Positions 18,001-61,090 of a DNA stretch of 64,000 bases are shown in pieces. The position numbers were made by a program, and so were the translations under genes. How positions within the stretch are numbered: the stretch's first letter is position 1; the number at the start of each line of letters is the position of its first letter. The stretch covers positions 430 through 64,429 of IMG/VR virus record IMGVR_UViG_3300032214_001459. One strand, given 5' to 3'. The notes below the pieces were generated by a model, which saw only the letters and a program-made list of their open reading frames with translations, did no database searches and had not been told where the DNA came from. Origin of the DNA: a virus (Duplodnaviria; Caudoviricetes).

Positions 18001-20180
18001 TCGGCTGGATTGGTGTGTCCGTATGATGTGATGACACGCGGAACGTCGTTTGTTTCATCTACGGGAACCTTGTCATCCCATAGTTTCATCAGTGGTAGGT
18101 CCCTATCTGTTTGCTTGTAATACTCAGAAAGCAAAAGCGCATTTAGGTAGTTGTCATCGTTTATATTGCCTGAACCAAAGAAATTAGTTCTGTTTTTCTT
18201 TCCTTGCTCGGTGTCTTTGACTGCTCTGAAAACGAGCCAGTGACCCCATTCGTGGACAATCGTCCCACTGATTGATTTGTCTATATGCGCATCAGTTATC
18301 AATGGCATATGCGTATCAGACCACAGAAGAGGTGTCTCTTCTCCTGGTACTGAACCCTCTCTATCGATAAGGGCGCGCTTGTTGAATATTAGAAGATTTG
18401 TACCAGGGGACAATCTTGCTCTAACAAATGGTTTTTTAGACAAAAATCTTTCATTTTGCAGTCTTGTTAATTTTTGACTGACCGATGGAATCGCTTCGTA
18501 TGTTTCAACACCTTTTGCCGACATTACTCCGATGGATGGAGCACCATGGTTTTCGAATGCCCATTTAACAGCTGGAGAAGAGTCGAGCAAAGCCTCCACC
18601 GCATCTCGTGATGCTTTAACGTTTTCTGGGGAGTAGTCGACTTCGTCCCATGGCGAATTCGCCATCATTTCGTCGTAATACTTTTTAAATGCAGCTCTTG
18701 GTCCTTCGATTTCATATGCACCTGGAGCAATGTCATCAACCCACATTCTGAAGTGTCCATCCTGCGAGTCTGGAACAATCAAATCTGCTATCTGTTTGCT
18801 ACTAAGCCCTTTTAGCCAGTCATTCTTGTATGCATTTATCTTTCCGCCAAGAACACTATCGTCGCCGTAATTGTAGTTAGTCGAACGATGCTTCTTAAGC
18901 ATTTCTCGTTCATTTTTTTGAAACGATATAACTGGACGCTTTTTATTGTTATCCAGTTTTATTATTGGGCGCTCCTGTGAGCCAGATGACAAACTTGGTT
19001 GCTGATTCTGCTTTGCAGCCTTAATAAACTCTTCTTTTGCTGCTCTAAATTTTTTTATTTCTGCATCAAATTTTTCATTATCTTTCTGCAGTTTGTTTTT
19101 TCTCTTTTCAGAATCAAGAAGATTAGTTGGCCAATCTCTTTCAAGAGCACCGTTTATTATTGCCGACATAACACGGCCCGTGGCTTGTGCGTCGGCGTCT
19201 GCGGTATGGTGTTTTTCTCCTAGCTCAACCTCTAAATACTTGGTTATCGCGGCAAGACCGTTTGATGGTTTCTTGTTTCCTTCAGAGTCAATAAGAAATG
19301 GCCCATCCTGATTTTCTTCAGACCACTTCGGAAGAGTCATGTCTGCTATGTCTTTTGTGTCCAGGTATCCACCGGGACGCCATTCAATTCCGGCATCGCT
19401 AAGCGTCTGTTCTAGAACGTCTTTGTCAAACGCAGCATTCTGTACACCAAAAATTGCATCTTCTCCAGCGAATTCAACGAGCGCCCTGTGAGCTTCGGCC
19501 ATAGACATCTGTTTGGATAGCCATTCGTCTGTTAGCTGGTTTCCGTCTTTATCTTTTAATTCTCTTGCCGACCATTCGCCAAGCGGCTCTTTTGGATTCA
19601 TGAATAGATTCAGGCGAGCTATTTCTTTATCGCCCTTCATTCTCACAACGCCAAATTGAACTGGCTGACCATTGGCTGACGGTTCTCTGAATTCGTCAAA
19701 TACAAGACCAGTTGTTTCGTAGTCAAAGAAGTTTATTTCGGTATCGTCGTAAATCTCTTTAAACTCTTCCCATGTTTTTGCTTTGCCAAATCTTTCTTCA
19801 GCACTTCCAATAAATGGGCCATATGTGGGTTTTCGTGGGAAAGATGGTTTTTTATCTTTTTCTCCACTAGATAGAGATAATTTTGGGGCATTAGGCATCG
19901 ACGATGGGGTTGGGTCTGGTTGCTCCCAGCCCGGCCACCCATCGAAAATTGTTCCATCTCCGTCGACGTCAACTCTGGTGCGGGGATTCAGGTCTCCATC
20001 TGGGACGCCAAGTCCACGAGCTCCGCGCCTTCTTTCACCACCTATATTTGGTCGGTCAACGAGTCTGCTTGCTGCCGATGAGCCGATTCGCCGGCCTATT
20101 GCCTTGACGTTAATTTCCTCTTTTTTACCACGACGTGACAGGCTAAAGGGAATCTCGAACTCATTATTTTGCGAAGACAT
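12060..20180 (-). CDS. 2706-aa multidomain (polyvalent) protein: DEDDh 3'-5' exonuclease, zincin metallopeptidase-like, three GNAT-like domains
   Basis: FFDYETTG...QNAAFD...LDT...HTADAD (about 19150-19745); HEWGH...PAETFAEG (about 17900-18300); GNAT motif A RRGLAS, RRGHG, GTGRTML; HEFMH; about 10 xL(S/A)SG linkers. Confidence 0.85.
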   Translation of the reverse strand: MSSQNNEFEIPFSLSRRGKKEEINVKAIGRRIGSSAASRLVDRPNIGGERRRGARGLGVPDGDLNPRTRVDVDGDGTIFDGWPGWEQPDPTPSSMPNAPKLSLSSGEKDKKPSFPRKPTYGPFIGSAEERFGKAKTWEEFKEIYDDTEINFFDYETTGLVFDEFREPSANGQPVQFGVVRMKGDKEIARLNLFMNPKEPLGEWSARELKDKDGNQLTDEWLSKQMSMAEAHRALVEFAGEDAIFGVQNAAFDKDVLEQTLSDAGIEWRPGGYLDTKDIADMTLPKWSEENQDGPFLIDSEGNKKPSNGLAAITKYLEVELGEKHHTADADAQATGRVMSAIINGALERDWPTNLLDSEKRKNKLQKDNEKFDAEIKKFRAAKEEFIKAAKQNQQPSLSSGSQERPIIKLDNNKKRPVISFQKNEREMLKKHRSTNYNYGDDSVLGGKINAYKNDWLKGLSSKQIADLIVPDSQDGHFRMWVDDIAPGAYEIEGPRAAFKKYYDEMMANSPWDEVDYSPENVKASRDAVEALLDSSPAVKWAFENHGAPSIGVMSAKGVETYEAIPSVSQKLTRLQNERFLSKKPFVRARLSPGTNLLIFNKRALIDREGSVPGEETPLLWSDTHMPLITDAHIDKSISGTIVHEWGHWLVFRAVKDTEQGKKNRTNFFGSGNINDDNYLNALLLSEYYKQTDRDLPLMKLWDDKVPVDETNDVPRVITSYGHTNPAETFAEGVVAYFHPNQEVRKNAINEKLRKDIESFLGDGSESRPWDDNESLELALSSGRTSKQRSAKREVNSAASEQVFSSSSEEDRELARLDYSISLASGLNVPESGSQKLNIVSDLDNRENDNFATPIRTISFRDESGKNKEYVIFATGPLGDNVYVFEKTKLDAFVEKREQELLSFYGKPLDEVGISVISRMTDEKYIRNKKNGLVGAMSVMTPSGEDSTSIVNEIAIDDKHKRRGLASALFKYQRDFWPDQDLHHSSALSDDGRAFAAATQFDGTSNPPVRNLQEDLSNFVNDLIEPLPDDVEDMPPSLSSGARVSPKERKKQLEKVNSAIDYLRNLDLQIAEVDLIDPETGKQIQSPIFTVAGRPMALVDVNGIRIPFYQSTGKGGKANPVGKWYPIFGVGKSDLIFDQEYRRFVDRGGWFNKGDTFEVIENYYGVPEFERIATILNDIDDLTNIDFYNVGQPVPEDEIIELLKKNGSVIPKGQKLPVARESINHDLWKIVNRDLTPYPTVGHAERSGGRRWDYLNEVIDRIKANRANLDINSVSIAVNRDELSVSGESNRIKNRDVQLTVKDKNGDSIKVSIESELKTRFDDTEEQNLTVRMRSNGLEVGVLHARTDTGGELGNRGKLTISDVLVPEDYHRRGHGKLMLALAEKYNIGSEKVNHSSKLSELGELFASGTSSPSLSSGAKKRDLPRGRKPTKQNISDGQKVSDKLKEQAIYHENGGYFEAGYSSGAAKASEQVLEAENRLAARSIVISLENQYEKLKAYEQDYVDNGNHYYVAEAEGARDGATQTFRAMYGQVYSKIEYNALLKRQREEEKKKAKRIADGASLSSGAQPKINLSDDEKREIIRLASQRKDNFSRSVVAQYYKNNGQLSNRQWSALNRMTSRGALGLSSGMVSDEEILTRVAKSFERASLPEEPSTPIDQRLIYKLASEIKKKDGTPVSTNDFLDFLLQIAQMSEDKFSPHPGFNSLEEEILPIESLAEIFKGLGHSRVEVAGSPTKKILGPVISELADLAGDDEFVQAARDYALPPLDVWASAAAKSIIKMQELRNDLGESRQQFMMREFRQESIDGVNSFVLRDINDEIIMSVPIAALQTRERGSFQYSRLNTIMFEYHQATPGIPFMTLVKKHMFPDDPAEEILADSKVMSANGDAATGGRNMAEVINNTKLTPLSTFKFSDSPAGKRVKEMFQRAYANVAHHDEFARRYAIRVRTLLLDAGIDPDRPDVKRALTVGWKQIPDTTEEPPENGGRFVSAALLVRNLVASLYRPSWDNSGETYTTPHEFMHLITGQGFTRHGEMASNIGWLGAFGEDVWPQVANLLGAQQRFFELQVNDSANGDTNEGYAGFRSLVLNKLSDTIGRDALDKMWTDENGILRYSKSDGLFDGFNWIDPLVPLEASDLGWGLKLGQAEKNDGPSLSSGADRELNIFSEKIDADIVSSAIAKNKRINTLRKERIKDLKDYGYRRISEDSIEEQDRLIELYMDSSYADGELANKWRKKPYPVLTDMEKSMNIPENIIPLSEIEKEAKKLGIRIRNPRHDISIRKRQAVVEPFNSDAYEEEYKRIYEKYENMLKNNETINDWSDLEIRVQDFSFEILNDDIELNETNNSESERQKIREEKPDSRPAPDYALRSFDSLSTDEQEELITLKIKNKIRFNQYLDLTRKFNDRAEFDYDYFEDDGSTGTRIRYSHDDLKRKPASKGRNKRVTDGLSLSSGANDKFKEQLKLIDDAVSRSSSKGVTTSSYQQKDVTKELVDEVEKATLDIQDTIRLITERIDEQLDEAYDGNLPEAQKQARIDELLEELESVSKVQESSRLAYQTLEKLQSIFDENRRNLDPSLNPWPPGLHISRNKDGEITGIALTAISNAPISGEYSKRWNNIGDVSDGRVLSIDYLVSLHKEEGTGRTMLGTILNEAKNNNVSLIQIEATNSSGEYWNKFGFSNPKRNNDWATNGALPSYSFLPIETQKETDDK

Positions 20181-20237
20181 TTCGCTTGCAATGATACCAC
20201 TATGCCTAAAAGGTCAAGAGTTTATAATTAGTGAAAA

Positions 20238-23018: not shown

Positions 23019-23027
23019 TTCTGTAAC

Positions 23028-23360: not shown

Positions 23361-23396
23361 GAATCCCCCGTTTAGTTAAGTGGTAAGGACGACATC

Positions 23397-23804: not shown

Positions 23805-23822
23805 GACCGTCCAGATGTATTT

Positions 23823-24831: not shown

Positions 24832-24850
24832 TAAGCTGTATAATAGTTAA

Positions 24851-25186: not shown

Positions 25187-25273
25187 AAATTAGTTGGATG
25201 CTAGACCATTTCAGTATTCATGTTTACTGTACACTCGTCTCTCTCATCACTAGCCAATTACAGGAATGGAAAC

Positions 25274-27199
25274 ATGTCAACTCTTAGTCAATCTTTTGTC
25301 GACTCTTACAAAATGAAGCAAGCGCCATGGGGATTTAATGGAATGGGGGAAATAGTATTTCTCCGTACCTATAGCCGCAAAAAGGAAAATGGGAATAACG
25401 AGACATGGGTTGAGACGCTCCAGCGTGTCATCAACGGTGCAATTGAGGTTGGCGTTGACTACACCCAAGAAGAGGCAGAAGCGCTATTTGACCACTGCTT
25501 TAACTTACGATGCTCATTCTCTGGTCGCTCACTATGGCAACTTGGCACACCGCTTGTCCAGAAGCTCAATGCAACATCTCTTAACAACTGCTATTTCACG
25601 AACATCGAAAAGATTGAGGATTTTGAGCTCTTGTTCGAATACCTAATGCTTGGTGGTGGTGTTGGATTCTCTGTTGAGCGCTCAAAGATTCACGACCTAC
25701 CAAAGATTAAGTCTGGTGTAACGATTACACATGAACGTAGTAACGACGCAGACATCATCGTCCCTGACTCACGTCAAGGATGGAAGCGACTTCTTCATGC
25801 AGTACTAAAGTCATATTTTGATACTGGTAAGTCTTTCTCGTACTCCACGGTTCTCATTCGTGAGTATGGCGCACCATTAAAGACATTTGGTGGTACAGCA
25901 TCAGGTCCTGGCGCGCTGATTGATGGGATTGCTGACATTAGTAAAGTTATGCAAAACCGCGAAGGGAAAAAACTTCGTTCAATTGACGTACTTGACATTT
26001 GCAACATCATTGGTCGCATCGTTGTTTCTGGTTCGTCGCGTCGTTCAGCGCAGATTGCAATGGGTGACCCGGATGACGTTCTTTTCCTTCGTGCAAAAAA
26101 TTGGGCATCTGGAAACATTCCTGCGTGGAGAGCGAACTCAAATAACTCCATTTATGCTGACCACTACGACGAAATAATGACCGAACTCTGGAAGGGCTAT
26201 GACGGAACTGGCGAGCCTTACGGCTTGCTGAATCGTCGCCTAGCAAGAAAGTATGGTCGACTCGGCGAGGCAAAGCCAGATAACTCAATTGAGGGCTTCA
26301 ACCCATGCGCAGAAATCGCATTGGCTGATGGCGAATCATGCAACCTTGCAACAATCTTTTTACCAAATGTGGAATCTTTGGAGCAATTCCAAGAAATTTC
26401 ACGTTTGCTTTATAAGACGCAAAAGCAAATTACCCGCATGGCGTACCCATATGAAAAGACAACGAATATCGTCAGCAAGAATGCGCGACTTGGACAGTCT
26501 GTTACTGGAATCCTTCAGTGTTCAGAAGAGCAGGTTTCATGGTTGTCACCTGCATACGAATACCTGCAGGAATTTGATAAGCAGTACTCCGCTGAGCGTG
26601 GATGGCCAGAATCGGTTCGTTTGACCACGGTTCAGCCTTCAGGAACGCTGTCCCTGCTCCCAGGCGTGACTCCAGGGATTCACCCAGCATTCGCTCCGTT
26701 CTACACCAGGCGTGTTCGCTTCGGCTCCTCAGACCCCCTTGTGGACGCTTGTCGCAAGCGCGGATACAAGATTCAGTGGGATATTGGTATCGACGGTAGA
26801 GAGGACCACACACGCTATGTGGTGGACTTCCCGTGCATGTCGCCAGAGGGTTCGGTTCTAGCTTCAGCAATGACCGCAGTAGAGCAGCTTGAGTGGGTGA
26901 AGAAGATGCAGACCGAGTGGGCAGATAATGCTGTCTCCGTAACCGTCTATTACCGCAAAGAGGAGCTTGGAGAAATCCAGGAGTGGCTCTCAAAGAACTA
27001 CGACAAGAGCGTTAAGTCAGTTTCGTTCTTGCTCCATGTTGACCACAACTTCTCTTTGCCTCCATACGAGGAAATAACCAAGGAGGAGTACGAAAAGATG
27101 CTCGCCAAGATTGATTTCTCTACGCCATTACAGGATGTGGCTTTCATGGGAGATTTGGACTTGGACAATTGCGCCACAGGGGCATGCCCGATAAAGTAA
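25274..27199 (+). CDS. nrdJ: Class II (adenosylcobalamin-dependent) ribonucleotide reductase
   Basis: RTYSR, GRSLWQLG, NNCY, GGGVG, RRSAQI, NPCAE, ESCNL, TTVQPSGT, C-terminal CATGACPIK. Confidence 0.93.
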   Translation: MSTLSQSFVDSYKMKQAPWGFNGMGEIVFLRTYSRKKENGNNETWVETLQRVINGAIEVGVDYTQEEAEALFDHCFNLRCSFSGRSLWQLGTPLVQKLNATSLNNCYFTNIEKIEDFELLFEYLMLGGGVGFSVERSKIHDLPKIKSGVTITHERSNDADIIVPDSRQGWKRLLHAVLKSYFDTGKSFSYSTVLIREYGAPLKTFGGTASGPGALIDGIADISKVMQNREGKKLRSIDVLDICNIIGRIVVSGSSRRSAQIAMGDPDDVLFLRAKNWASGNIPAWRANSNNSIYADHYDEIMTELWKGYDGTGEPYGLLNRRLARKYGRLGEAKPDNSIEGFNPCAEIALADGESCNLATIFLPNVESLEQFQEISRLLYKTQKQITRMAYPYEKTTNIVSKNARLGQSVTGILQCSEEQVSWLSPAYEYLQEFDKQYSAERGWPESVRLTTVQPSGTLSLLPGVTPGIHPAFAPFYTRRVRFGSSDPLVDACRKRGYKIQWDIGIDGREDHTRYVVDFPCMSPEGSVLASAMTAVEQLEWVKKMQTEWADNAVSVTVYYRKEELGEIQEWLSKNYDKSVKSVSFLLHVDHNFSLPPYEEITKEEYEKMLAKIDFSTPLQDVAFMGDLDLDNCATGACPIK

Positions 27200-27206
27200 T
27201 CGGTAT

Positions 27207-27283
27207 GCGTCGGTAGCTCAATCGGATAGAGCAACAGACTTCTAATCTGTAGGTTGTAGGTTCGAGTCCTACCCGGCGCGCCA
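27207..27283 (+). tRNA. tRNA-Arg(TCT)
   Basis: Canonical cloverleaf, loop CTTCTAA, encoded CCA. Confidence 0.95.
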
Positions 27284-27302
27284 TAACTAGGAAAGAGTAA
27301 AG

Positions 27303-27974
27303 ATGAAATCACAAAGTTTTGGTTTTGTTCGTCTTGATTCATGTATGGCAGATGACATCTCTGTTGTTAATTCGGCAAGAGTTTCATTTGCTAAGTCTCA
27401 GCAAGAGATGGATGATTCGGGGAGAGGTTTAATCAACTTCCTCATGCGCGAAAAACACGGAACCCCATTCGAGCACAATTCATTCCGCTTTCATGTTAAA
27501 TGTCCAGTCTTTGTTGCTAGGGAGTGGTTTCGGCACAGGATTGGCTCATTCAACGAATTTTCAGCAAGATACAGCGAGGTGGGCGAGGACTTTTTTGTAC
27601 CGTACCAAAACGATGTTAGGTCGCAAGTCGGAAAGCCAGGAGCCTACGAGTTTCATATAGTTGAAGAAGACATTGCCAATCAAGCAATAGAGATAATTAA
27701 TCAAGCCAACATCAGCGCTTATGAAGCATATAAAAAACTTATAGATATGGGCATTGCGAAAGAGCTATCAAGGACAGTTCTTCCAGTCGGCATGTACACA
27801 CAGTTTTACTGGACTGTAAATGCTCGTTCTTTAATGAATTTTCTTTCTTTGCGTTTGTCAAAAACTGCTCAGCTTGATATTAGAAGGTACGCAAAGTCTG
27901 TTGAGGCTATTTTTGCAGACAAGATGCCAGTTACCTATAAGGCTTGGGTTGAGAATGGAATGAACTGCCCTTAG
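27303..27974 (+). CDS. thyX: Flavin-dependent thymidylate synthase
   Basis: ARVSF, HGTPFEH, REWFRHR..SFNEFSARY, NARSLMNFL.LR. Confidence 0.96.
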   Translation: MKSQSFGFVRLDSCMADDISVVNSARVSFAKSQQEMDDSGRGLINFLMREKHGTPFEHNSFRFHVKCPVFVAREWFRHRIGSFNEFSARYSEVGEDFFVPYQNDVRSQVGKPGAYEFHIVEEDIANQAIEIINQANISAYEAYKKLIDMGIAKELSRTVLPVGMYTQFYWTVNARSLMNFLSLRLSKTAQLDIRRYAKSVEAIFADKMPVTYKAWVENGMNCP

Positions 27975-27980
27975 GCGTAA

Positions 27981-30623: not shown

Positions 30624-30865
30624 GGCTCGATAAAGATACATTCCCCAGGGCACTCTTCGGCTGCCTCTATAACGTCAGAGAGTCTTTCGTCTGCGAAAGA
30701 TGCCATTCCTGCTGCTCCCTCCGGGTTCCCCACAGCGGCCGCATAAATCTTGTCCCCTTCTTTTACATACGCAAGACCGTCTGGCATCATGTGGAAAACA
30801 TCTGGGGCTATCTCCGCGCAAAGACCATCTCCAGTGCATAAGTCTTGGTCAATCCAAACTCTCAT
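30620..30865 (-). CDS. Ferredoxin (single-cluster, actinobacterial type)
   Basis: MRVWIDQDLCTGDGLC..IAPDVF...AAEECPGECI; TAATG coupling to upstream gene. Confidence 0.9.
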   Translation of the reverse strand: MRVWIDQDLCTGDGLCAEIAPDVFHMMPDGLAYVKEGDKIYAAAVGNPEGAAGMASFADERLSDVIEAAEECPGECIFIEP

Positions 30866-31320
30866 TATTTTTCCCTTGTAATTGGTCCACCAGTTACCCA
30901 AGCTCTACAAGTTCTCTTTGATGCGCATTTAAAGTCAAATGCTTCGCAGTAGCCAAGTTGGCCTGCGCCATCTATTGCTTCCCACTCGTCTTTCCTCTCG
31001 CCACCAGTAACACCACCCTCTATGCATGCCATCATGGATGGGGTTTTTATAAAAAGCGAACAGTTGCCGCATAGTTGTTTCTTCGCCGAAGCGGAGTCAA
31101 CTTCCCATTCTTTTGCAATCTTTTTCCAATAGTCTTCATTTGGCTCAGCTGGATTTAATGGTCCGTACATTGCTGTATCAATAGCCTTTTTACGATTCCG
31201 CAGATTAACAGCAATATCCTTTGTGGCTGTAGGGCATTTACCGGACGAAGAAGCGTCTTTTTCTTCGAATCGAAAACCTTTCACAACACCACTGTATGTG
31301 CCCCACGTTTCGTTACTCAT
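30865..31320 (-). CDS. Cys-rich hypothetical phage protein
   Basis: CPTAT...YGPLNP...CGNC...GYCEAFDFKCASKRTC. Confidence 0.7.
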   Translation of the reverse strand: MSNETWGTYSGVVKGFRFEEKDASSSGKCPTATKDIAVNLRNRKKAIDTAMYGPLNPAEPNEDYWKKIAKEWEVDSASAKKQLCGNCSLFIKTPSMMACIEGGVTGGERKDEWEAIDGAGQLGYCEAFDFKCASKRTCRAWVTGGPITREK

Positions 31321-31321
31321 A

Positions 31322-32625: not shown

Positions 32626-34154
32626 TAGTACTTGGATATTCCGTTATTTTTGCCTGGCGTTCTCTTCGGTGCTGGTGGGCCAACTTGTGGCTTTGGCTTA
32701 AAAAACCCTGGGTCTGGGTTCTTATCCTTGTCAACTCGTGGACCTCTAGCAGGACCACTGGCCTGTTCTGTCCTGTCGGCTCCAGGTCGTGTGGCAGAAG
32801 GATTGCTGGTTCGTGGGTATCTGTCAGCAGGCTTTTGGTCACGTGGGCTTGATGGGGAAGGTTTCTGACCAGGAGGATACTTCTTGCCTGGCTCTGGATA
32901 CCTATCCGCTGGTTTCTGGTCGCGCGGCTTTGATGGGGAAGGCTTCTGTCCTGGTGGGTACTTCTTCTCAGGGTCGGGATACCTATCTGCAGGCTTTCCT
33001 GGCTCGTAACCCTTTGGATAAGGAGGGTTTGGCTTGGGGTTAGGCTTTTTAGGTGGTTCTGAACTGGTTGCTGGTTTCTTTGATTCTCCAGCACGAACCC
33101 TTCTATCGTATTCAGCTCTTGCTGCCCTGCGGGCTGCACGCTCTTTTTCGTCACGGTCTTCTTTTTTGGCGTTTGCAGTAATTCCCTGTTTCTTCAATTG
33201 ATTTCTAACAAAACGCTTTCTATCTTCATCCTGAGTGAATTTGGCTCTTGCTTCAGCTCTTGCGTCTCTTTCGTTTTCTGGTCTGTCATAAATCTGATTC
33301 TGAATTTGACCTTTGCCGTCTTCCTCGGGGACAATCCTTCCCATTCGTGTCGGCGTTATTCCTCTTCTTGCTAACTCGCGTCGGACTTCTTGTCTTCTTC
33401 GCTTTTCAAGGAATGAGTTACTTAGTTTCTTGTATGGCTCTCTTTGTTTTTTAGGCTTGGCTTGCTCGTTTTCTGTACCGTCGAAAACTGTTCCGTCACC
33501 ATCACGGTCGATTTCGTCTTCTGGATTGCTTCCTGGTGGTGGTGCGCCTCCAGCGCGTTGTCCTATCGATTGTCCAAGAGCAGAGCCGCCAGCTTTTACT
33601 TCAATTTCTTCGAATTCTTCTGACTTCTTTTTTGAGTTCTCATATCTTTCAAGAAGTCTTCTTCCTTTTGCCGCCAATGCAGCAGCATCTTCTGCATTCT
33701 TTGGAACTCTCTCGCCCCAAGCCGTAGCGGACAACGCAAGCCTTGTTGCTCTTCCTTTTTCATCAACCATTGGTCCGGATGGATTTGTGAAGAAGCGTGT
33801 GAGGAATGAACCTTTTCTTCTCATCTTCTCTGGAGTATCTGCTGGCCCTTTTACTCCAGGCTTCAAATTTGCGCCTTCAGTGCGCTTGAAGAACTTTCTT
33901 CCTTCAGCAGTAAGACCACCATCTGGGTCCTTTAGTGCTGACTTTTCTTCTCTTTCATCGAACTTGTCTGACAGTTCGTCAAAAACTCGTGCGCCGTAAT
34001 ACTCGTCATAGAGTGGCGTTCCTTCAAGATGTACTTTTCCATCTTCTGTGGGTTCGATTATCAAATCGCTCTTTATGAAAATCTCTTCGATTTTGAGCAA
34101 TTCTTCGTACATTGAGTCAATTTCGTTGTTATCCATGATTACCAATTCTCGCAC
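32625..34154 (-). CDS. Head-module protein with DxDGDG module and Pro-rich tandem repeats
   Basis: KDPDGGLT...GANLKPG...RRKGSF domain; DRDGDGTVFDG; directly downstream of MCP. Confidence 0.75.
   Translation of the reverse strand: MRELVIMDNNEIDSMYEELLKIEEIFIKSDLIIEPTEDGKVHLEGTPLYDEYYGARVFDELSDKFDEREEKSALKDPDGGLTAEGRKFFKRTEGANLKPGVKGPADTPEKMRRKGSFLTRFFTNPSGPMVDEKGRATRLALSATAWGERVPKNAEDAAALAAKGRRLLERYENSKKKSEEFEEIEVKAGGSALGQSIGQRAGGAPPPGSNPEDEIDRDGDGTVFDGTENEQAKPKKQREPYKKLSNSFLEKRRRQEVRRELARRGITPTRMGRIVPEEDGKGQIQNQIYDRPENERDARAEARAKFTQDEDRKRFVRNQLKKQGITANAKKEDRDEKERAARRAARAEYDRRVRAGESKKPATSSEPPKKPNPKPNPPYPKGYEPGKPADRYPDPEKKYPPGQKPSPSKPRDQKPADRYPEPGKKYPPGQKPSPSSPRDQKPADRYPRTSNPSATRPGADRTEQASGPARGPRVDKDKNPDPGFFKPKPQVGPPAPKRTPGKNNGISKY
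32815..32998 (-). repeat. In-frame tandem repeat, 27-aa (81-nt) unit KPADRYPxPxKKYPPGQKPSPSxPRDQ, about 2.3 copies
   Basis: Visible in translation and DNA. Confidence 0.85.
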
Positions 34155-34243: not shown

Positions 34244-35626
34244 TTACGGTGCCGTTGGAGCGTTGTCGAATGTGACTTCAACGAATGCTTCTGGACGCTT
34301 GACAGCGAGAGCAAGTCTCTGTTCTGCCAAAACGACGATTGCGTTGCGCACGAAGAAGTCGCTGTGCTGTTCGCTGATGCGAATGCTTGCTTCTTCTCTG
34401 TCGTACAACTGAGCGCCGGTTCCGAACGCACCAACAAGTGCCTTGCCTTCGGTCATTGCTGGAGTGTCAATGATTGGCATTCTCCATACCTTTGGCTCGC
34501 CACCCATTGCAACTGACACAGCAACCAAGTACTGGCCATTGCCATCCTTGGTCAACTCGATGTCTTCCCAATCGTTCGGGTGCAACACGATACCCGATGG
34601 CTCGTAGTAAGCCAAGAAGGAGAGTGTTGCAGCACGACGGAGAGCGTCTGCCTTGGTGTCACCCATACCAGCTGTTGCCGAGTAGGCACCAGATGACCAT
34701 GAGTATTGCTGAACGTTTGGTGTGTTCATGATTCCGAGGAGGTTTTCGCCAGCACCGTTACCGTTGAGGATTTGATTATCCTCAAGAAGACGGAGACCGT
34801 ACATCAACTCGTTGTCGATGATTGAGCGCAACTGTGGCTCATCGGCGAGGACGTTGCGGTGTGCAGCTTCCCAGTGTGCCAATGTGCGGATAGGAGCTTG
34901 CTCACCAACGAATGCGAATGAAGATTGTGGCTTCAAACCAAATGCTGTTCCAGCTGATGTTCTTTCAGCAACTGATGATGCCGAGTTTACTCCAGCTCCA
35001 GCCTGAAGGGTTGTGAAACCAAGCTGACGGAAGTACTCGATAACTGCTGCGTTTGTTCTACGAACTGGGAACAAGTCACGAACACGCTTCGTACGCATCG
35101 GAGGAAGAACCATTGCATCGCGCTGAACTGTTCCAAACTCACCGAGGCGGCTGTTTGTTACTGCAGTTGTTGGCAATGCTGTGTAAATGTCCTTCTGCTG
35201 AATGCCGAAGTTGTGTGTTGTCAATGAAGTTGCAACCTGCCATGGTGATGACATGTTTGCACCGTTACGACCGTTAGCCAATGACTTGAATTCTGGTGAA
35301 TCCAAGAACATCTGACCAATTGTCTTAACTTCATGTGAAGAAAGTTGTCTGAAGTCTGCTGATGCAGCTGCGTATGCGGCTGAAACAGTTTCTCCTTGTG
35401 GCTGATTTGACCATGACTCAACTGAGCCCATTGTCTCGAGGTCGGACAAGAGTGACTTAATTTCCTTGATGTCTCTCATGTTCTTATCGAAAGCTGTTTT
35501 CTGGTCTGCCGAAACTACAACAGTTCCTTCTTCGATTTTGAATGAATCTGCAATGGCCTTGTTTTCTGCCATCTTACCGCGAAGAGCTGATTGCAACTCT
35601 TCTGTTCTTGCTGTGTCTTGCGACAT
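34244..35626 (-). CDS. Major capsid protein (HK97 fold)
   Basis: VRDLFP, KPQS, IRTLAHW, L.D.PQL.SII...L.YGL...ED.QILNGNG.G.NL.GI, F.RN.I..LAE.RLALAV.RPEAF. Confidence 0.95.
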   Translation of the reverse strand: MSQDTARTEELQSALRGKMAENKAIADSFKIEEGTVVVSADQKTAFDKNMRDIKEIKSLLSDLETMGSVESWSNQPQGETVSAAYAAASADFRQLSSHEVKTIGQMFLDSPEFKSLANGRNGANMSSPWQVATSLTTHNFGIQQKDIYTALPTTAVTNSRLGEFGTVQRDAMVLPPMRTKRVRDLFPVRRTNAAVIEYFRQLGFTTLQAGAGVNSASSVAERTSAGTAFGLKPQSSFAFVGEQAPIRTLAHWEAAHRNVLADEPQLRSIIDNELMYGLRLLEDNQILNGNGAGENLLGIMNTPNVQQYSWSSGAYSATAGMGDTKADALRRAATLSFLAYYEPSGIVLHPNDWEDIELTKDGNGQYLVAVSVAMGGEPKVWRMPIIDTPAMTEGKALVGAFGTGAQLYDREEASIRISEQHSDFFVRNAIVVLAEQRLALAVKRPEAFVEVTFDNAPTAP

Positions 35627-56200: not shown

Positions 56201-59200
56201 TGAAGAACCCATTTCTGCAATCAGCTCCTCTGATGCACGAATCTTTTTATTTTTTCCGTAATCTCTTACAGTTTGCCTATCTATACGTGCCGCGCCACCT
56301 GTCCAGTGAGTTAGTTCATGGAAGAGTGTTCCGTAATACTGTTCTGGAGACTTGAACATTTCGTACAAAGGCATCTGTATTAAATCTTCGCTTGGGGAAA
56401 AGAAAGCCCCATCTCCACCAAACTTAATGACTGGCTTAATTTCTTCTATTACTGCCTCAGCATCTTTTATTTTAAGTGCAGGGTCAAGACGTTCTTTGCC
56501 AACATCCAACAGCTTCTTTACGTATGCATCTGGGAGACCTTCAATGTCGTCCAAGTTGTATACAGTCTGAACAATAAAATATTTACCAGTAGAACCCTCT
56601 CTCGGGACAAGGATATTTACCCCATCCTTGCCATCCTTCACCTTCCCACCGAACTTCGCCCATTGCGTTTTGCCAGCCCAGAAATTTCCCCTGTATTTAT
56701 TTTGTCTATGAGAATTAGCGAGCAAGAGTGAGTTCATGCCCTGGTATAGGCGACTTCTTGTTGGGTTTTTTGCGTAAAGAGTAGGGGTTCTCCAAGGTAC
56801 GTCCCAGTACGTTGCAGTTGGATTTTTTTCCATCTCGATGAGAGCTTCAAGAATGGACTTTCCTATTTCGTCATAAATCTTTTTATTTTCACCAGATGAC
56901 AAAGAAAGACCATCAGCCTTATCGGCCAAGGTTTTTGATGCTGGCTTGTCGCCAAAGACACTGCCAGATGAAAGAGCCAAGTTGTACTCAGGGACCTTGT
57001 TGGTGTCTGACTCCATCTTCTCAATAGGAACACGACGCTTGGATTCTTTGCCAGCAGAAGCAATATCTTCAATGTACTTTTCTGTTATTGCAGAACGAGC
57101 ATTCCAGAGAGAATCCTGTTCTTTGGAAATCATTCTTGTTGCTACGTCGCTAGCTTCAATATTCTTCTTATCTTTAATCGTGGATACACGTGAATACTTA
57201 TTTATGTCGCCAATCCACTCATACGACCTATCGCGGATTGCTTCTAGCTTTCCTGCTTCATTGCTTCCAGGCTTTACTGACTCAAGTCTTACATTCGTAT
57301 CCCGAACGGTTGCCTTGTGCTTTGCTAAAGAGCCATTGTTGAGAGCATCCATGGCATCATCAACGATGTCCATATAATCCTGGAACTCATCGTCTCCACC
57401 AGTAACCAGGTCAAATGCCTTCTTTGTGTCAAAGCCATTAGCTTCAACTATTCCATCTCCACCGAGCATGTCTGCAATATCGGTTGTTATGTCATCTTTG
57501 ATTAGAGGGTTCTCTTCAAGGTAATCATGCACCTGGTCGAGTAATCCGTTTCCTTCATCGGTTGTTGTTATGTCGTAGTTGTAGTAGTCGCGACCCCTAC
57601 CACCAGAAGAGAGGGATGGGCTCTCTTCTGTCGCTGGCTTCGATGGGAGATTTCTTGAGTCTCTGCTTACGAGCTTTCCGCTACGTCTATCAACGAGTCT
57701 GTCTGCAAATTGATTTCCCTTGCCGAGCTTCCAGTATTCTTTGTTTTCACTATTGAGGTTTGCTGGCTTAAGGCTTGCCTGATATGCGAGTTCGCCAATT
57801 TCGTCAGCATAAACCTCGTCCCATTGCGCAAGGATTCTGTTGGTTCCCTTGTCTTTCCCTGTATTTATTTTCTGCTCAGCTCTGACGTAGTAGAGGTCTG
57901 GAACAGAGTTATACCCGATGACTACTTGCTGGTCCTTTGTGGAAGGAAGAATCATTTCATTCCCTCTACGCTCAACGCGGCCACCGGATATAGCCATTAT
58001 GTTCCCTCTGCCAATTTGATTCATTGTTTCGCGAAGGTCGAATCTGTCTGGCTCATATCCTCTAGAAGTGGCCCAGTCGTCGCTTGCCCCAGAAGAAAGT
58101 GATACGCCGTCTTTTTCTTTGCGCATTTTGCGCATGTGTCGTTGTTCGCGCTTTCTAACTTCCATTCTAGTTAGACCAAGCTCTTCCGCAACATCTTGCA
58201 GAGAAGCTCCAGTTGTCATTCTCTTGCGATAAATCTCTTCATCACTCATGTCTTTTGGCTTTTTGCGAGAAGTGACTTTTGGTCTTTCTTCTTCTGGGCC
58301 CATCATGTCAAGAAGAGTGTCGTAGAAATCTACATTTGTATCGCTCTCGTAATTTTCTTCGTCAAAATTTGGTCTTGTATCGTCGTCTGCTCCAGAAGAG
58401 AGGGAGAGTGAACTTCTCTTCTTTGCTTCTTTTTTCTTTCTTAATGGGACTGGCGATAATGAGTCAAAACCGTATTGACGCATCCAGTCGGATAGGCCAT
58501 CTTTCCCATCTGGACCAATACCCCTAAATCCAGTTGCATCTGGTCTGTTGTTATACATGAATTCATGCATCGCATCTTCCATGCCGTTGTAGAATTCGTT
58601 GTCATCACCACGTGATGCTTCAAGGAAGGTGCCAGCGCGCATAACCATTCCCGAATACCAATCTCGGTAATCGACAGAGGAAGTGTTTTTATCGCTAAAT
58701 TTTGCTGGACGTCTATTTGTATCGTCACCAAGCCACATGACTCTGGCTTGATTGACGCCCATCTCTCTTCCGCGTAGGTAATCAGGGGACCTGTAGGCAT
58801 CTGGCTTATATCTAGGAACATCAGTCCAGCCGTACCCGGAGTCTTTCCAGTCTTTAATTACTTCTTCAAACTTCTTACGCTTTTCAAGTTCTTCCGGAGA
58901 TACAAGTGACTCAAATTTTGGGTCACCAGAGTGGCGGGTGAGTCTCTTTTCCTGCTCACCAGAAGATAGCGATGGTGTTTTTTCTTTATCGGTTTTTGGC
59001 TTCTTGCTGAAGTCGAGTTCACCGCGTTTTACTTTTTCCTTCTTTGCAGGAGCTTTCTTCGCAACTGCTTTCTTCGCAGCTTTCTTTACTGGTTTTGCGT
59101 CGCCATCGAGAATGTCACTTACATCATCTGCTTCGTATTTTGGTTCTCTACTGGTAATCGTTTTGCCAGGCTTCTCCTTGCCGCCTTCGCCAGGGATATT

Positions 59201-61090
59201 TGCAACGTCTCTTCTTTGTGATGAGGAAAGCTTTGGGTTATTGACTGAACCAGGTCCGTCTGGAGTTGGGTCTGGTTGTTCCCATCCTGGGATGTTGTCA
59301 AAAAGAGTTCCGTCTCTGTTCTTGTCGACTCTTGTTCGCGGGTCAAGGTCGCCTTCCGGCATACCAAATCCACGACCCCTGCGTTTGCCGCCACCGATAT
59401 TTGGTCTATCAATTGCTCTTGAGCCGAGCGACCGACCTATTCTGTAACCGAGGGCTTTACCCTCTATCTCATGTTCTGAGAATTTTTTTTTTAAGTTGTG
59501 GAGAGCCGTATCGACTGCGTCTATGAGGTTTTCAGTTACCCCGGAGATAATGACTATTCCTTCTGAGTCAACAAAAGTCTCTGCTCTGTGGTAATCAAAT
59601 ATTGGGTCAAGGGCTGTTTTTACTCTAAATGCAAAACTTGGCTCGACTGGTATTACGTACGACTTCTCACCCATATCATCGTCATCGCCGAACTCTGCAA
59701 GATTCTTGTACTTGTTTCTTTTCTTCTTTTTCTTGCCAACCGCATTTCTAACAATTCCAAGAACAAACTCGCCTGGATACTTGAGTTCAAGAACATCAAT
59801 AATTGCATTTTCTGCTTCGGAAACATGCTCTTCAAGTTCTTTGGAGCCACTGCTCAAAACAATTCCATTTGGAATAACTGCAAATCTGCATTTTCCTTCT
59901 GGTTCGACTGGCATGTCAATGATTTTGCACTTTGAGCCGCCTTGGTAGAAGACGCAGTTTGAGCACTTAACACCGATGCGTGCTACTTCGTTTTCTTCTG
60001 CAGGGCTATATCCAGCCCATACACCGTTTGAATCTTCATTGAATTTACCGTGGCGTGAAACTATCTTCAGCAAGGCATCGCGAAGGTCTGCCTCTTCCTT
60101 ATCCAAAGATGGTTTTGCGTTTGAATCATACTGAACTGCAGGAAGAGGAATCATTGTTAGTCCATCGCCACTTGGCTTTACGGCGACTGGTATGGATGGC
60201 ATCTGTTGAGGTCTAATCACGCGCTGTGGCTCGTTTGCCGGCATAGGCCTTCCGCTAACCATAGGCATAGGTGCTGACTGTGGAGTGCGAACTGGAGACT
60301 GTGGAATGCTGATTACCTCAGGCGTCCCAAACATGTATCGACCTTGGCTTCTCATGAAGCCACACTTGTACTTCTTGGCACCACTCATCTCGTGGCGCGT
60401 GAATACAACTTCGTCACCATCTATTGAGTGAACAGAAACTTTCGCGCCAAAAAGATTTGAAAGTTCTTTTTCCATTTCTTCGTAGCCGTTGCTCTCATCC
60501 CTCTGAGGCATCATCGCGATAGGAGTTCCATATGCAGAATCGTCTGCCTTTACGGATATCGTTCCTGTCAGCTGATTTGCTCCGTGCAGAACAGGGCTGA
60601 CTTCATAAAGTTCAACTTCATAAAGAATATTCGCTTGTGCCTTTTGGTCAAACTGAGCTCTTAGGGTCTTATAGCCAATAGACCACTCTTGTTCTTCCCC
60701 AAAGAAAGCAACGTTAAGAAATGCCTCTTTGCCTTTTTCTGAATTCAAATTGAACTGGACCTTTGCGAACAAACCGCCTATGCCAGCAATCTTCATTTTC
60801 AACGGAAGACGTGGGTCCTGTGGTCCAACCTCGTAAATTTCTAGAACTTTTCCGATAGGGTCGTTCCAGTTGTGGCCCCATACAACTCTTGGCTTTCTGC
60901 GGAGCAGACTCTTAGTAAAAGCCCCCGAAGCACAAACATCACCAACTGAGTCTTTATTGCCAATTCCGGCCACGAAGCATTCGACTATTCCCTCGGCCTC
61001 ATCAAGATTGATTGGTCCGTTTACTGACTTTGCGCCATGTGCCGACGTTGCTTTGTATTCGAATGCTTCATTTGACATTTTTGGAACCAA
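50258..61090 (-). CDS. 3610-aa prohead protease fusion: HK97-type protease + ArdC-like + SF1 (UvrD-like) helicase
   Basis: GNKDSVGD...GAF..SL...WGHNWNDPIGK...EWSIGY...LYEVSPV..GAN (about 60550-61000); PW...Y.GMN.LLL and FHELTHWTG...EELIAEMGS (about 56060-56880); GAGSGKTT, DEAQD, GDSRQAIYGFRGA, SFRYG, TVHVSKGREW, YIAITRA (about 52540-55680). Confidence 0.9.
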   Translation of the reverse strand: MVPKMSNEAFEYKATSAHGAKSVNGPINLDEAEGIVECFVAGIGNKDSVGDVCASGAFTKSLLRRKPRVVWGHNWNDPIGKVLEIYEVGPQDPRLPLKMKIAGIGGLFAKVQFNLNSEKGKEAFLNVAFFGEEQEWSIGYKTLRAQFDQKAQANILYEVELYEVSPVLHGANQLTGTISVKADDSAYGTPIAMMPQRDESNGYEEMEKELSNLFGAKVSVHSIDGDEVVFTRHEMSGAKKYKCGFMRSQGRYMFGTPEVISIPQSPVRTPQSAPMPMVSGRPMPANEPQRVIRPQQMPSIPVAVKPSGDGLTMIPLPAVQYDSNAKPSLDKEEADLRDALLKIVSRHGKFNEDSNGVWAGYSPAEENEVARIGVKCSNCVFYQGGSKCKIIDMPVEPEGKCRFAVIPNGIVLSSGSKELEEHVSEAENAIIDVLELKYPGEFVLGIVRNAVGKKKKKRNKYKNLAEFGDDDDMGEKSYVIPVEPSFAFRVKTALDPIFDYHRAETFVDSEGIVIISGVTENLIDAVDTALHNLKKKFSEHEIEGKALGYRIGRSLGSRAIDRPNIGGGKRRGRGFGMPEGDLDPRTRVDKNRDGTLFDNIPGWEQPDPTPDGPGSVNNPKLSSSQRRDVANIPGEGGKEKPGKTITSREPKYEADDVSDILDGDAKPVKKAAKKAVAKKAPAKKEKVKRGELDFSKKPKTDKEKTPSLSSGEQEKRLTRHSGDPKFESLVSPEELEKRKKFEEVIKDWKDSGYGWTDVPRYKPDAYRSPDYLRGREMGVNQARVMWLGDDTNRRPAKFSDKNTSSVDYRDWYSGMVMRAGTFLEASRGDDNEFYNGMEDAMHEFMYNNRPDATGFRGIGPDGKDGLSDWMRQYGFDSLSPVPLRKKKEAKKRSSLSLSSGADDDTRPNFDEENYESDTNVDFYDTLLDMMGPEEERPKVTSRKKPKDMSDEEIYRKRMTTGASLQDVAEELGLTRMEVRKREQRHMRKMRKEKDGVSLSSGASDDWATSRGYEPDRFDLRETMNQIGRGNIMAISGGRVERRGNEMILPSTKDQQVVIGYNSVPDLYYVRAEQKINTGKDKGTNRILAQWDEVYADEIGELAYQASLKPANLNSENKEYWKLGKGNQFADRLVDRRSGKLVSRDSRNLPSKPATEESPSLSSGGRGRDYYNYDITTTDEGNGLLDQVHDYLEENPLIKDDITTDIADMLGGDGIVEANGFDTKKAFDLVTGGDDEFQDYMDIVDDAMDALNNGSLAKHKATVRDTNVRLESVKPGSNEAGKLEAIRDRSYEWIGDINKYSRVSTIKDKKNIEASDVATRMISKEQDSLWNARSAITEKYIEDIASAGKESKRRVPIEKMESDTNKVPEYNLALSSGSVFGDKPASKTLADKADGLSLSSGENKKIYDEIGKSILEALIEMEKNPTATYWDVPWRTPTLYAKNPTRSRLYQGMNSLLLANSHRQNKYRGNFWAGKTQWAKFGGKVKDGKDGVNILVPREGSTGKYFIVQTVYNLDDIEGLPDAYVKKLLDVGKERLDPALKIKDAEAVIEEIKPVIKFGGDGAFFSPSEDLIQMPLYEMFKSPEQYYGTLFHELTHWTGGAARIDRQTVRDYGKNKKIRASEELIAEMGSSFLLAAVGITPEVRKDHVVYIKSWISNLKEDPGAFIKAMEKAQQAADYIMDRSPTMRRLAGVPDTERKGKPDVTEKATEAVGAATDEAKDSVIALSSGTQVGVRKVKELRYFGDEKEYGSGITQRDSSGRILDESGALSLSSGAKPIVSLDGKTTIPRLDDSVSYREKYKFLPDEFEPTEQQKASIDTLVHMLESETSGIVAIGAGAGSGKTTNLKQNARAVAALYPGKQIYYTVFNRGNAKDGNRVMPRNTGVATGNQIAYWSLVLGTGDAFYGAGTTRKIQLGVGPRDSKKLRGAKRNTVNVATTFEGETKEFTGEIPGYRELGYTSYDSAPNIAERLSKDGIVDEETDDGFTISQNLKKALGRFAESSDEKLSKQHFLLRDIEKIQALQKGEPVPTEDSIDEKMVQYAQMLWDETVDPKSNVLIPQDYQIKMWALTNPDLRYDKGLIGHRPNETVFDKVKLGTVEDMDAGKIKVGDLVEFKIPETGEKVAAVIRKLNPPSKKETKKGELSGNRQVTGTVSIVSVTSDKPLDVFMFDEAQDVNPVLAKVLADNAKNMPIIMVGDSRQAIYGFRGAMDALEKANATFRLPLTRSFRYGAMPAYLANVVLMQGNIDDFNFYQNMGTPEKNIWHHVVGEAQNVVINALNINGPDGKILPKKDLEKKLRFIEVKYKLGGRAVDFKGKNEKEVKDIISKLYDEHVPRAEGQIVEDMTGADAVLTSTNSGVMVEALKVIQDGINAHQIAYLDLDGIEDIKNPQELAGRLRTVSEKYTLDGVAVDLIEILEKDGRDSMLKSINELRDEYAPGGADGKIPAIGIPADTHEKFLDFFTQLDWIVGDLDKKFGIEGRPKPSKLLKDVWRFDKKKGRYPSKDEMLAKIDKMIKGGESELRTLHNLAYPKSKDGGVRGDAKGARFFKDLLRPQGQKYTDINGNEIKYQGLRPMREGINLPDMESGKDYITTDEMDRVGKLKPGTKAGSSQKISWIIPKKEESVSDGEVFVKLHIGDDGKPSGALIIAGEGANGGKYKFRRWNKVKKTWGPIEDGKPGKIDYHGDISKVIKKMKAEYPDAVIEFRQGLIQQVGTAQTFPSDTPDDFVPPMKGDLPDSSVPRASLPGFFIQGKDSEETARLANELGNRVRQLATEGNTDTDIMTVHVSKGREWKRVRLADDFKNPEDMVPVIPEEELAKLSPKDRLAVERQLQLMRREEHNKVYIAITRAQEQIDIGAVLAKLYFDDSQNASIKSAKDKIAENPDGIYDELQAPAGFYVPYSGDTEARDAARKERRKRLDESFDRYVKSQGKTKDVAPEEDDEPEVEDESGGFDSGDPDFKDVAGPDDDEYDGDNGDDSDLLSLSLSSGAKKKTNRANRRLPFNEQDRQSVADRNILRSKKVPKKRKPAPSAEEFDDLALASGANTPEGRYARRLRAISLSSGSDDIGAGAKNQRVSGKKFAANIAGPRDLAAIRIDGDPRRNDKAKRKLEYAMKFWRGVRERGIALDPEDTTAERKNIEIKNVINSVSKGMAARPKVKIGKVSSNQIKDEVNPDEWFVPVSKLRDAVRIPTEFSSYPSDPDNPNSRMIARWTQTRPLNNDELGKMLALGKSDIAKLSDDDAGVTHDAVRFLLSEIGKQDGFDAWRLFAPTSEKEEGVSEMTPSEKFVENLGRANMRDRFIIETFGKDAFPYWIDKEENGVISQKEYASLGEVSETGKFRSTGIFSKKRGESEFGSMAEEMLLEEAVFGGDDTPSDLVKQSVVEAASAPSDKTSREQFDVDQLLESLGIDKSDKWHEELKRRMVESFGVDDVGLNTREIARNWEAGGVPTTYINEMIRTGMIPDAKSVWKKDESGKKLDQELAASKHSVYEALYEFTQSKHAADKAKNTRRNRDYILNSSDFTVSHKGVAARKGATFSKKTGDERRFSQGELQNVVNRFNEIFGTNYKIDDIFSAEQLRNATKRLREEGRTLYGDDASELGKRVILKKDKDKK

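Follow-up and report, generated by a model that had tools for sequence, protein, structure and literature searches.

A recurrent 90-residue module in giant proteins of an uncultured tailed phage, a candidate propeptide for incorporation into the prohead

Three proteins encoded on the minus strand of a DNA stretch from an uncultured tailed phage have a single segment of sequence in common, a module of about 90 residues here called the tag. The stretch, referred to throughout as the window, is 64,000 nucleotides long (positions 430 to 64,429 of IMG/VR virus record IMGVR_UViG_3300032214_001459; Duplodnaviria, Caudoviricetes) and makes up most of that 64,429-bp record, which is what statements about its genome cover. 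Two of the tag carriers are giant proteins, the polyprotein P0002 and the protease fusion P0003, and the third, P0004, is a smaller protein containing a DUF6321 domain. We favor, at slightly less than even probability, the reading that the tag is a cleavable propeptide for incorporation into the prohead, that is, a capsid-targeting tag comparable in function to the capsid-targeting sequence (CTS) of phage T4. This is supported by observations and computations reported here, namely the homology of the copies, their restriction to phages, their fixed position ahead of shuffled cargo, the purifying selection acting on them, and the enrichment of a cleavage-like motif that co-varies with a junction in the capsid protein.

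Residues 13-104 of P0002 align by BLASTP with residues 532-624 of P0003 at 54 of 94 identical positions (57%; expectation value, E, 6e-24), and residues 21-108 with residues 182-251 of P0004 (34/88 identities, E 4e-8), while P0004 and P0003 match at E 7e-4. These results confirm the first-pass annotation of the window, made from its letters alone, which had reported three similar segments at these places; all three lie on the minus strand. A hidden Markov model (HMM) built from the copies and run against the 1117 six-frame open reading frames (ORFs) of the record recovers those three only (E 1.8e-49, 8.8e-49 and 4.6e-25), and no fourth copy is present in the six frames, the next-best match having an E of 0.37. 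When the window ORFs of 60 residues or more were compared with one another by BLASTP, no other common segment appeared, bar an antisense echo; the tag is the only sequence common to P0002, P0003 and P0004. The echo consists of two plus-strand ORFs (19753-20439 and 58797-59444) with 55% identity over 75 residues, which reflect the similarity of the tags on the opposite strand and are no evidence of genes.

The layout of the tag comprises a charged lead-in, a helix motif K-[AGS]-[IL]-G-x-x-[IL]-G, a loop D-x-[DN]-x-D-G followed by a hydrophobic residue and F-D, and the segment PGWEQPDPTP. The two long copies alone have the sequence ..DRPNIGG followed by a Gly/Arg-rich spacer. The N-terminal half is basic in long forms (net charge +3 to +10), and the DUF6321 form has no basic spacer. 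K-L-S-x-S closes all three copies, and the first L-S-S-G site of P0002 (19863-19874) falls at the end of copy 1. The E-rich lead-in ending in K-A and the D-x-[DN]-x-D-G loop, both noted in the first-pass annotation, are present in each copy. That annotation had also described a leader of about 75 residues, shared by unlinked giant genes and preceding their cargo. The shared unit stands, at a length of about 90 residues, although it is internal rather than leading in P0003 and P0004; the genes do lie apart, but unlinked here means a separation of about 30-39 kb within a larger genome; and the tag precedes cargo in the giant proteins but not in P0004, where a basic, proline-rich tail with no evident cargo follows it.

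The three-copy profile was scored against 1,835,955,588 representative proteins at E <= 0.001, and the matches were sorted by BLASTP with parts of the window proteins, Pfam being run on 11 of them. Only 24 representatives were matched, none with signs of a cellular context. Sixteen have an S78 protease, a conserved mid domain and the tag at residues of about 370-660; four have the tag at residues 13-106/112 and then an exonuclease, and in P0023 some 480 unrelated residues separate the N-terminal tag from the exonuclease. The remainder are single cases: a 240-residue protein that begins at the tag; a carrier of the DUF6321 type; P0027 (3566 residues), in which DUF3721 and a module like the 358-residue gene product of the window precede the tag, and NUDIX, helix-turn-helix (HTH) and Zeta_toxin-like domains follow it; and P0029, in which the tag stands behind a 150-residue N-terminus of no recognized family. 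In IMG/VR, 21 loci were found by tag patterns, and an iterated HMM showed that many of 80 capsid-gene relatives have the short form of the tag in the gene just downstream of that for the capsid protein. In each of five complete relatives the tag is present in two ORFs of 2205-4250 residues, and in two of the five also in an ORF of 441-541 residues (E <= 0.01), with no further copies. Homologues lying mostly in non-virion proteins, the outcome that the first-pass annotation had named as speaking against its interpretation, were not seen among the profile matches; the 24 representatives and the IMG/VR loci, products of the kind of metagenome search it had proposed, all occur in phage head-associated contexts, ahead of variable, shuffled cargo.

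Outside these sets the tag is scarce. No match was obtained by tblastn in 50,697 records of cultured phages, and among 185,579 species genomes there was a single one, on a phage-like 24.8-kb contig of a metagenome-assembled genome. An HMM scan of the head region of Gordonia phage ChisanaKitsune gave nothing below E 0.28, and an Atlas search with the tag returned no usable match. Among 21 tag segments none matches PHROGs v4; Pfam-A offers no significant family, two of the 21 each matching one unrelated family at E 0.027 and 0.078; and the sequences of the Protein Data Bank (PDB) contain no significant match.

The tags group by carrier type and not by genome, copies within one genome being 26-57% identical. 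One C-terminal variant occurs both in carriers with an N-terminal tag, or N-type (P0023, P0026, L028, L046), and in protease-type carriers (P0022, P0024). Co-evolution of copies within a genome, hinted at by the pairs P0023/P0024 and P0028/P0029, was considered and set aside as a general rule, given that the copies in G001 and G002 are 26-32% identical and have different C-terminal variants. The DUF3721 protein of 358 residues encoded upstream of the capsid gene in the window (35779-36855, minus strand) stands alone there; its counterparts in L101:2575-5172 and P0027 are fused to the tag and to cargo with HTH, P-loop/Zeta_toxin-like and NUDIX domains.

Comparison of the window with its relatives shows that the tag is under purifying selection, its ratio of nonsynonymous to synonymous substitution rates (dN/dS) being 0.05-0.14, against 0.03-0.11 for enzyme domains. 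The linker that follows the tag in P0003 (residues 625-708) has 59-82% identity where the tag has 87-91%, and in the comparison of the window with L010 the tag (87%) is the best-conserved segment. Invariant tag residues persist across lineages in which the tag is just 25-50% identical. The cargo presents the opposite picture: P0002 and its counterpart in L003 are 96-97% identical in the first 400 residues and 22-43% in later modules, and in the protease fusions the ArdC-N/MPTase pair starts anywhere from residue 819 to 2003, with UvrD located before it, after it, or absent. The cargo behind the fixed protease-tag head is a shuffled mosaic.

A second regularity concerns the short motif L[SA]SG, which occurs 10 times in P0002, 12 times in P0003 and four times in P0005, another giant protein (26 in total), and in no other minus-strand ORF. 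Chance would account for a mean of about 0.2 per giant protein, with a maximum of three in 2000 shuffles, so that the enrichment is 20- to 60-fold, and the sites in the giant proteins lie between Pfam domains. The motif follows 12 of 12 distinct N-terminal tags, 32-55 residues past the loop. For 21 distinct protease-type tags the distance is more variable, with eight motifs within 60 residues, nine at 61-131, two further away, and two ORFs with none, one of which is cut by a contig end; the group of protease-type tags to which that of the window belongs has K-L-S-S-[SATR] at +31. A sequence I-V-I-S-S-G upstream of the protease-type tag was also considered as a flanking cleavage site and rejected, its position not being kept as L[SA]SG in relatives.

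A similar sequence, Q-L-S-S-H, is found in the major capsid protein at residues 94-98 (about 35324-35353), where a conserved N-terminal extension meets the body of the protein, presumably the junction between scaffold domain and mature protein. Co-variation was scored in 80 relatives, comparing the capsid junction with flanking ORFs of at least 250 residues. The junction reads L-[ST]-S in 62 of the 80, and 54 of these 62 have at least one [LF][SA]SG in the flanking ORFs (mean 3.2 per locus); it has other residues in 17, and [LF][SA]SG occurs in none of these 17; the one remaining relative has E-L-S-P, with three [LF][SA]SG motifs. In the L101 lineage S-L-R-S in the capsid protein is paired with G-L-R-S in the cargo. 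Other inter-domain repeats, I-T-G-[AS]-M, [IV]-S-G-[RK]-M and G-L-R-S, were observed in sister lineages (L075, L087, L096, L098, L100, L101, P0027, P0029), and these lineages differ at the capsid junction too. The pattern suggests that the specificity of the protease drifted together with its substrates across lineages. L[SA]SG appears to be the cleavage site of the prohead protease. We infer that the S78 protease may cut both the capsid protein and the polyproteins, which would place the polyproteins inside the prohead.

Run on the tag alone with a 21-row alignment, AlphaFold2 predicts a single helix (P0002 residues 16-39) and disorder elsewhere, the rest being coil and the mean predicted local distance difference test score (pLDDT) 56.5; the alignments are shallow, and for that reason the coil is weak evidence of disorder. 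In a model of P0003 residues 1-700 (mean pLDDT 51.3) the protease is formed, together with a beta domain at 202-254 (pLDDT 72-78) and a small alpha/beta domain at 478-534 (pLDDT 71-84), and the tag is left unplaced, with a short helix at 551-558. A Foldseek search of the PDB with this model gave no match at E <= 0.001. Prediction of a complex between a capsid monomer (alignment A3) and the tag (alignment A2, residues 8-106) gave no answer, at a score of 0.00 and without controls, and is evidence neither for nor against binding.

The first-pass annotation had described the loop as EF-hand-like. In an EF-hand loop, acidic or amide residues occupy positions 1, 3 and 5, Gly position 6, a hydrophobic residue position 8, and an acidic bidentate ligand position 12. 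The loop of the tag agrees with this pattern at positions 1, 3, 5, 6 and 8 and aligns with three EF loops of ALG-2; all 21 sequences of alignment A2 have D71, D75 and G76, with D or N at position 73, and a few further homologues have N at loop position 5. A profile search of the PDB returned only EF-hand proteins (ALG-2, calmodulin), at E 0.19-0.69, with the loop lying on their calcium loops. The likeness therefore holds for the short pattern but extends neither to position 12, which is W, I, T or G and not acidic, nor to a helix-loop-helix, no helix following the loop in the AlphaFold2 models, nor to the EF-hand families of Pfam, which none of 21 tag segments matches. A role for calcium may be taken as a lead only.

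On the favored reading, the tag, unstructured until bound, would dock its carrier to some part of the prohead during assembly, for which the candidates are the acidic protein g555, the N-terminal scaffold domain of the capsid protein, the portal, or other tag bearers. The protease-led P0003, the unlinked P0002 and the DUF6321 protein P0004 would in this way be enclosed in the same prohead. The S78 protease of P0003 would then cut at sites of the L-S-S-G type, freeing N-terminal carriers of their tag, and the same cleavage would dice the polyproteins into single enzymes (exonuclease, acetyltransferases, ArdC/zincin and UvrD helicase) that, presumably, would leave the head together with the DNA. 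We infer packaging, cleavage, the receptor and any involvement of calcium from the patterns described.

The interpretation of the first-pass annotation, a T4-type address label, finds partial support: the distribution of the tag, the motif that follows all 12 N-terminal tags, purifying selection and predicted disorder are all in keeping with it. The T4-like N-terminal position is seen in P0002 and in 12 of 12 distinct N-type carriers, whose tag begins at about residue 13 and whose location in the head is presumed. Several points weigh against the reading. Binding, packaging and cleavage of the carriers are predictions from sequence. P0005 lacks the tag in spite of its four L[SA]SG motifs, so that the tag would not be the sole address; there is a second one, or the tag can be dispensed with. 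None of 18 distinct copies of the DUF6321 type is followed by L[SA]SG, and their carriers have no such motif altogether; there the tag would stay uncut at that motif. The tag is internal in P0003 (532-626), in P0004 (171-252) and in the DUF3721 fusions, and it follows other modules in proteins of protease-tag-scaffold-like build (P0025, P0028) as well as in the DUF3721 fusions (L101, P0027); these preceding modules may need no help to get to the capsid, and the tag is then less obviously an address and nothing else. The N-type and protease-type tags of G001 and G002 are 26-32% identical and have different C-terminal variants, and such divergence within one genome is not the simplest expectation of a single shared receptor pocket. 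Finally, the co-variation of motif and capsid junction is uncorrected for relatedness, and the 17 contrasting loci represent only a few lineages.

The same observations bear on other roles for the tag. One that we consider improbable is co-assembly of tag with tag, the EF-hand-like loops of different carriers pairing, possibly via calcium, such that P0002 and the DUF6321 protein ride in on the protease fusion. Single EF-hand loops usually work in pairs; each tag contains one D-x-[DN]-x-[DN]-G loop, invariant at D71, D75 and G76 in 21 sequences; complete genomes have exactly two or three carriers, as would fit a small hetero-oligomer; and the same C-terminal variant can be found in N-type and protease-type carriers. 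Such pairing is harder to reconcile with the different variants and 26-32% identity of the copies in G001 and G002, with a loop that lacks an acidic position 12, and with the want of any significant match to an EF-hand model, those in the PDB search remaining at E 0.19-0.69. There is a smaller probability still that the tag governs exit and not entry, its basic Gly/Arg segment binding DNA or the portal channel and ordering the ejection of proteins into the host. The Arg/Gly-rich N-terminal half, with its net charge of +3 to +10, would suit that function, and a precedent exists in the giant virion polymerase of phage N4, whose N-terminal region is described as serving injection and its C-terminal region encapsidation (PMC5512222). 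Nevertheless, the cleavage-like motif between tag and cargo in 12 of 12 distinct N-terminal tags means that the cargo, if cleavage does take place, would have shed the tag by the time of ejection, and the DUF6321 form has no basic spacer.

Equally slight is the likelihood that the tag is an element of protease handling, a pro-region for docking or regulation, by which the polyprotein is offered to the S78 protease or the protease is kept inactive until assembly. Its fixed distance behind protease and mid domain in 16 of 24 representatives, and the cleavage-like motifs after it, are as such a role would have them, but the capsid protein and P0005 have the cleavage motif and no tag, the DUF6321-type carriers have the tag without any L[SA]SG, and AlphaFold2, at low confidence, puts the tag nowhere on the protease domain in cis. 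That the tag is a passive linker or a remnant of duplication, with no specific role, is very improbable and already disfavored: predicted disorder and the failure to match any known family would agree with it, but dN/dS is 0.05-0.14, the tag is 87-91% identical where the adjoining linker is 59-82%, residues stay invariant across lineages with 25-50% identity, and the tag is kept in three to five different protein contexts.

If the tag is a propeptide for prohead incorporation, g555 deserves attention as a candidate scaffold and candidate tag receptor. Its C-terminal 92 residues (compared with L001:18336-19841) are 48% identical (E 1e-22) to the C-terminus of a protein annotated as capsid maturation protease in Gordonia phage ChisanaKitsune, which combines a protease, an acidic region and a g555-like C-terminal motif and is encoded directly upstream of the capsid gene of that phage. 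In the window, the protease and the scaffold-like part (g555) are encoded by two genes, and the tag plus about 3400 residues of cargo come between them. The net charge of g555, -87, contrasts with the +3 to +10 of the N-terminal half of the tag. As for P0005, no Pfam family was found in it, and none backs the ParB-like and RelA-like parts that had been picked out by eye. Residues of about 193-249 of P0005 (47700-47880) and of about 96-171 of a 698-residue gene product (39200-39430) have a common N-proximal motif (BLASTP E 0.001), [F]-K-A-.., then R-C-P-x-G ... F-T-D ... C, which may be a second address. A mini-motif [FVG]-K-A-[GILN] was also noted once in each of six head-module proteins.

The features discussed are collected in Table 1. 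The head module reads, on the minus strand, portal, P0003, g555, P0005, five smaller genes, major capsid protein and P0004, and P0002 is located about 14 kb past it, with genes of nucleotide metabolism and replication in between. The Peptidase_S78 domain of P0003 (PF04586, residues 35-178) scores 41.5 bits against a Pfam cut-off of 21, and H73 and S137, which we take to be the catalytic residues, are nearly invariant in 22 aligned fusions. Further along are ArdC-N (residues 1403-1495, ArdcN E 1.2e-12), MPTase-PolyVal (residues 1543-1668, E 7.9e-36) and UvrD domains, all by Pfam. The listed TTG start of P0003 (61078-61090, minus strand) is probably unused, relatives beginning at a Met four codons downstream (M-S-N-E-A-F-E-Y-K), and residue numbers given here for P0003 may therefore be four too high. 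P0002 contains, by Pfam, an RNase_T-type exonuclease at residues 151-337 and GNAT domains. P0004 consists of DUF6321 (residues 75-146, E 1e-27), the short tag, a basic region and proline-rich repeats; these tandem repeats, in its C-terminal part (32625-33100, minus strand), are of about 26 residues (P-A-D-R-Y-P ... K-K-Y-P-P-G-Q-K-P-S-P-S) and come after a strongly basic region, the protein having a pI of 9.6. Cysteine-rich stretches (C-x-x-C ... C) with the look of small zinc-binding modules were observed in P0003 (residues of about 375-400), in g555 and at 30865-31368 (minus strand). Auxiliary genes (2595-5755, minus strand; 25220-27974, plus strand) encode a Nol-like carbamoyltransferase (E 9.7e-107), a 2OG-Fe(II) oxygenase, a B12-type ribonucleotide reductase and a thymidylate synthase.

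Table 1. Positions in the window of the tag copies and of the genes discussed in the text.
Feature	Position	Strand	Description
Tag copy 1, P0002 residues 13-106	19863..20144	-	Lead-in, basic helix K-A-I-G-x-x-I-G, Gly/Arg-rich spacer, D-V-D-G-D-G loop, PGWEQPDPTP
Tag copy 2, P0003 residues 532-626	59213..59497	-	Follows S78 protease and small alpha/beta domain (478-534); ends K-L-S-S-S
Tag copy 3, P0004 residues 171-252	33399..33644	-	Short form without Gly/Arg spacer; ends K-L-S-N-S
Portal protein	61187..63256	-	Phage_portal E 4.5e-50; directly upstream of P0003
P0003, protease fusion, 3610 aa	50258..61090	-	Peptidase_S78, tag, ArdC-N, MPTase-PolyVal, UvrD-like helicase; 12 L[SA]SG
g555, acidic protein, 555 aa	48474..50141	-	Candidate scaffold and candidate tag receptor; net charge -87; C-terminal ChisanaKitsune match
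P0005, 2567 aa	40750..48453	-	4 L[SA]SG, no tag, no Pfam family
Major capsid protein	34244..35626	-	Phage_capsid residues 175-452, E 5.8e-42; N-terminal extension
P0004, DUF6321 protein, 509 aa	32625..34154	-	Directly downstream of capsid gene
P0002, polyprotein, 2706 aa	12060..20180	-	Tag, RNase_T-type exonuclease, GNAT domains; 10 L[SA]SG

The capsid gene has 440 relatives in IMG/VR, and the closest capsid proteins of cultured phages, at 46-48% identity, are those of Gordonia phages. The record is probably a fragment, of about 40% of a genome, because contigs of 53-63 kb from relatives are rated 34-42% complete and the complete relatives (G006-G010, the records behind L003, L030, L033, L038 and L069) measure 145-170 kb, two of the five with direct terminal repeats. 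The reading of the 64-kb record as a whole genome was rejected in view of the 158-kb relatives with terminal repeats, together with the completeness of the contigs of similar size. A fragment of that extent would also explain why no tail or terminase gene was recognized among the record genes scanned.

Propeptides and signals that direct proteins into phage heads have been described in several systems. The CTS of the T4 internal proteins IPI-III and of Alt is a shared N-terminal propeptide through which these proteins are incorporated into the prohead core and which the prohead protease later cuts off (PMC7411985; Mullaney and Black as cited in PMC9024508). N-terminal copies of the tag have the same layout of tag, cleavage motif and cargo, but at about 90 residues the module is longer than the CTS (about 10-20) and is also found internally, behind protease, DUF6321 or DUF3721; the comparison is one of putative function. 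Ejection proteins of SPN3US, a phiKZ-like Salmonella phage, have propeptides of 111-130 residues that are removed by the prohead protease and proposed to serve prohead targeting, a role also proposed for the C-terminal propeptide of its protease (PMC7411985). The parallels are a large phage, a mass of ejected head proteins (here putative), a long propeptide and a protease that is itself tagged; the differences are another protease family and cleavage motif, carriers that are separate proteins and not polyproteins of 2700-3600 residues, and a protease unfused to cargo. In phage P1, the N-terminal 30 residues of DarB, a 250-kDa anti-restriction protein (methylase-helicase), direct it into the head and suffice for a reporter, and the Dar proteins have no common signal by BLAST (PMC9024508). 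The cargo here is likewise anti-restriction-like (ArdC-N, helicase), but its signal is recognizably shared by sequence, and cleavage of the DarB signal is not described in the available text of PMC9024508. The system also resembles HK97 in its broad type of protease, here presumably carried into a capsid whose scaffold is the N-terminal domain of the capsid protein. Duda, Oh and Hendrix reportedly described, in 2013, a C-terminal targeting region of the HK97 maturation protease. About 60 copies of that protease are present per prohead, according to PMC12749128.

The giant carriers are also related to a known concept, the polyvalent proteins of phages and conjugative elements, which combine many effector domains, are predicted to be packaged and delivered, and for which processing by peptidases has been proposed (Iyer et al. 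2017, PMC5512222). P0003, with MPTase-PolyVal, ArdC-N and UvrD in one polypeptide and the portal gene next door, has the features of this class, and P0002, with RNase_T and GNATs, is a polyvalent protein in the same sense. In contrast, neither a shared targeting module nor a repeated cleavage motif is mentioned in the available text of PMC5512222. A literature search found, in the text accessible, no description of the tag module or of an N-terminal S78 protease fused to polyvalent cargo, although the supplements to PMC5512222 might list such architectures. Capsid-targeting propeptides as such are already known; what would be new here is a family unmatched in Pfam-A and PHROGs that far exceeds the T4 CTS in length and is present in several protein contexts and lineages, and, further, its coupling to an N-terminal prohead protease fused to polyvalent cargo.

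Taken as a whole, a wider picture, which we put forward tentatively and regard as rather unlikely in all its parts, would be that of a transferable and perhaps calcium-dependent address module, about 90 residues long, which together with a lineage-specific cleavage code (L-S-S-G here; G-L-R-S, I-T-G-A-M and I-S-G-R-M in sisters) constitutes a capsid cargo-delivery system in uncultured phages with genomes of about 150 kb that make up a widespread clade. In this system the prohead protease would lead a 3000-residue anti-defense polyprotein into the head and then dice it. Only for a few model phages are the rules known by which proteins are chosen for enclosure and injection, and the signals established so far are short and cannot be recognized from sequence. 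Here a signal-like module can be traced by homology through several contexts and lineages, beside a motif that tracks the presumed maturation site of the capsid. If the picture is true, tag and cleavage site together would offer a portable means of loading such capsids with arbitrary proteins, and the tag would be the first case of capsid-targeting signals recognizable as one sequence family in different protein contexts and phage lineages. The module also points to a polyprotein strategy in a DNA phage, with the maturation protease fused to its own cargo, and marks some 9000 residues of candidate injected anti-defense enzymes in an abundant group of uncultured phages.

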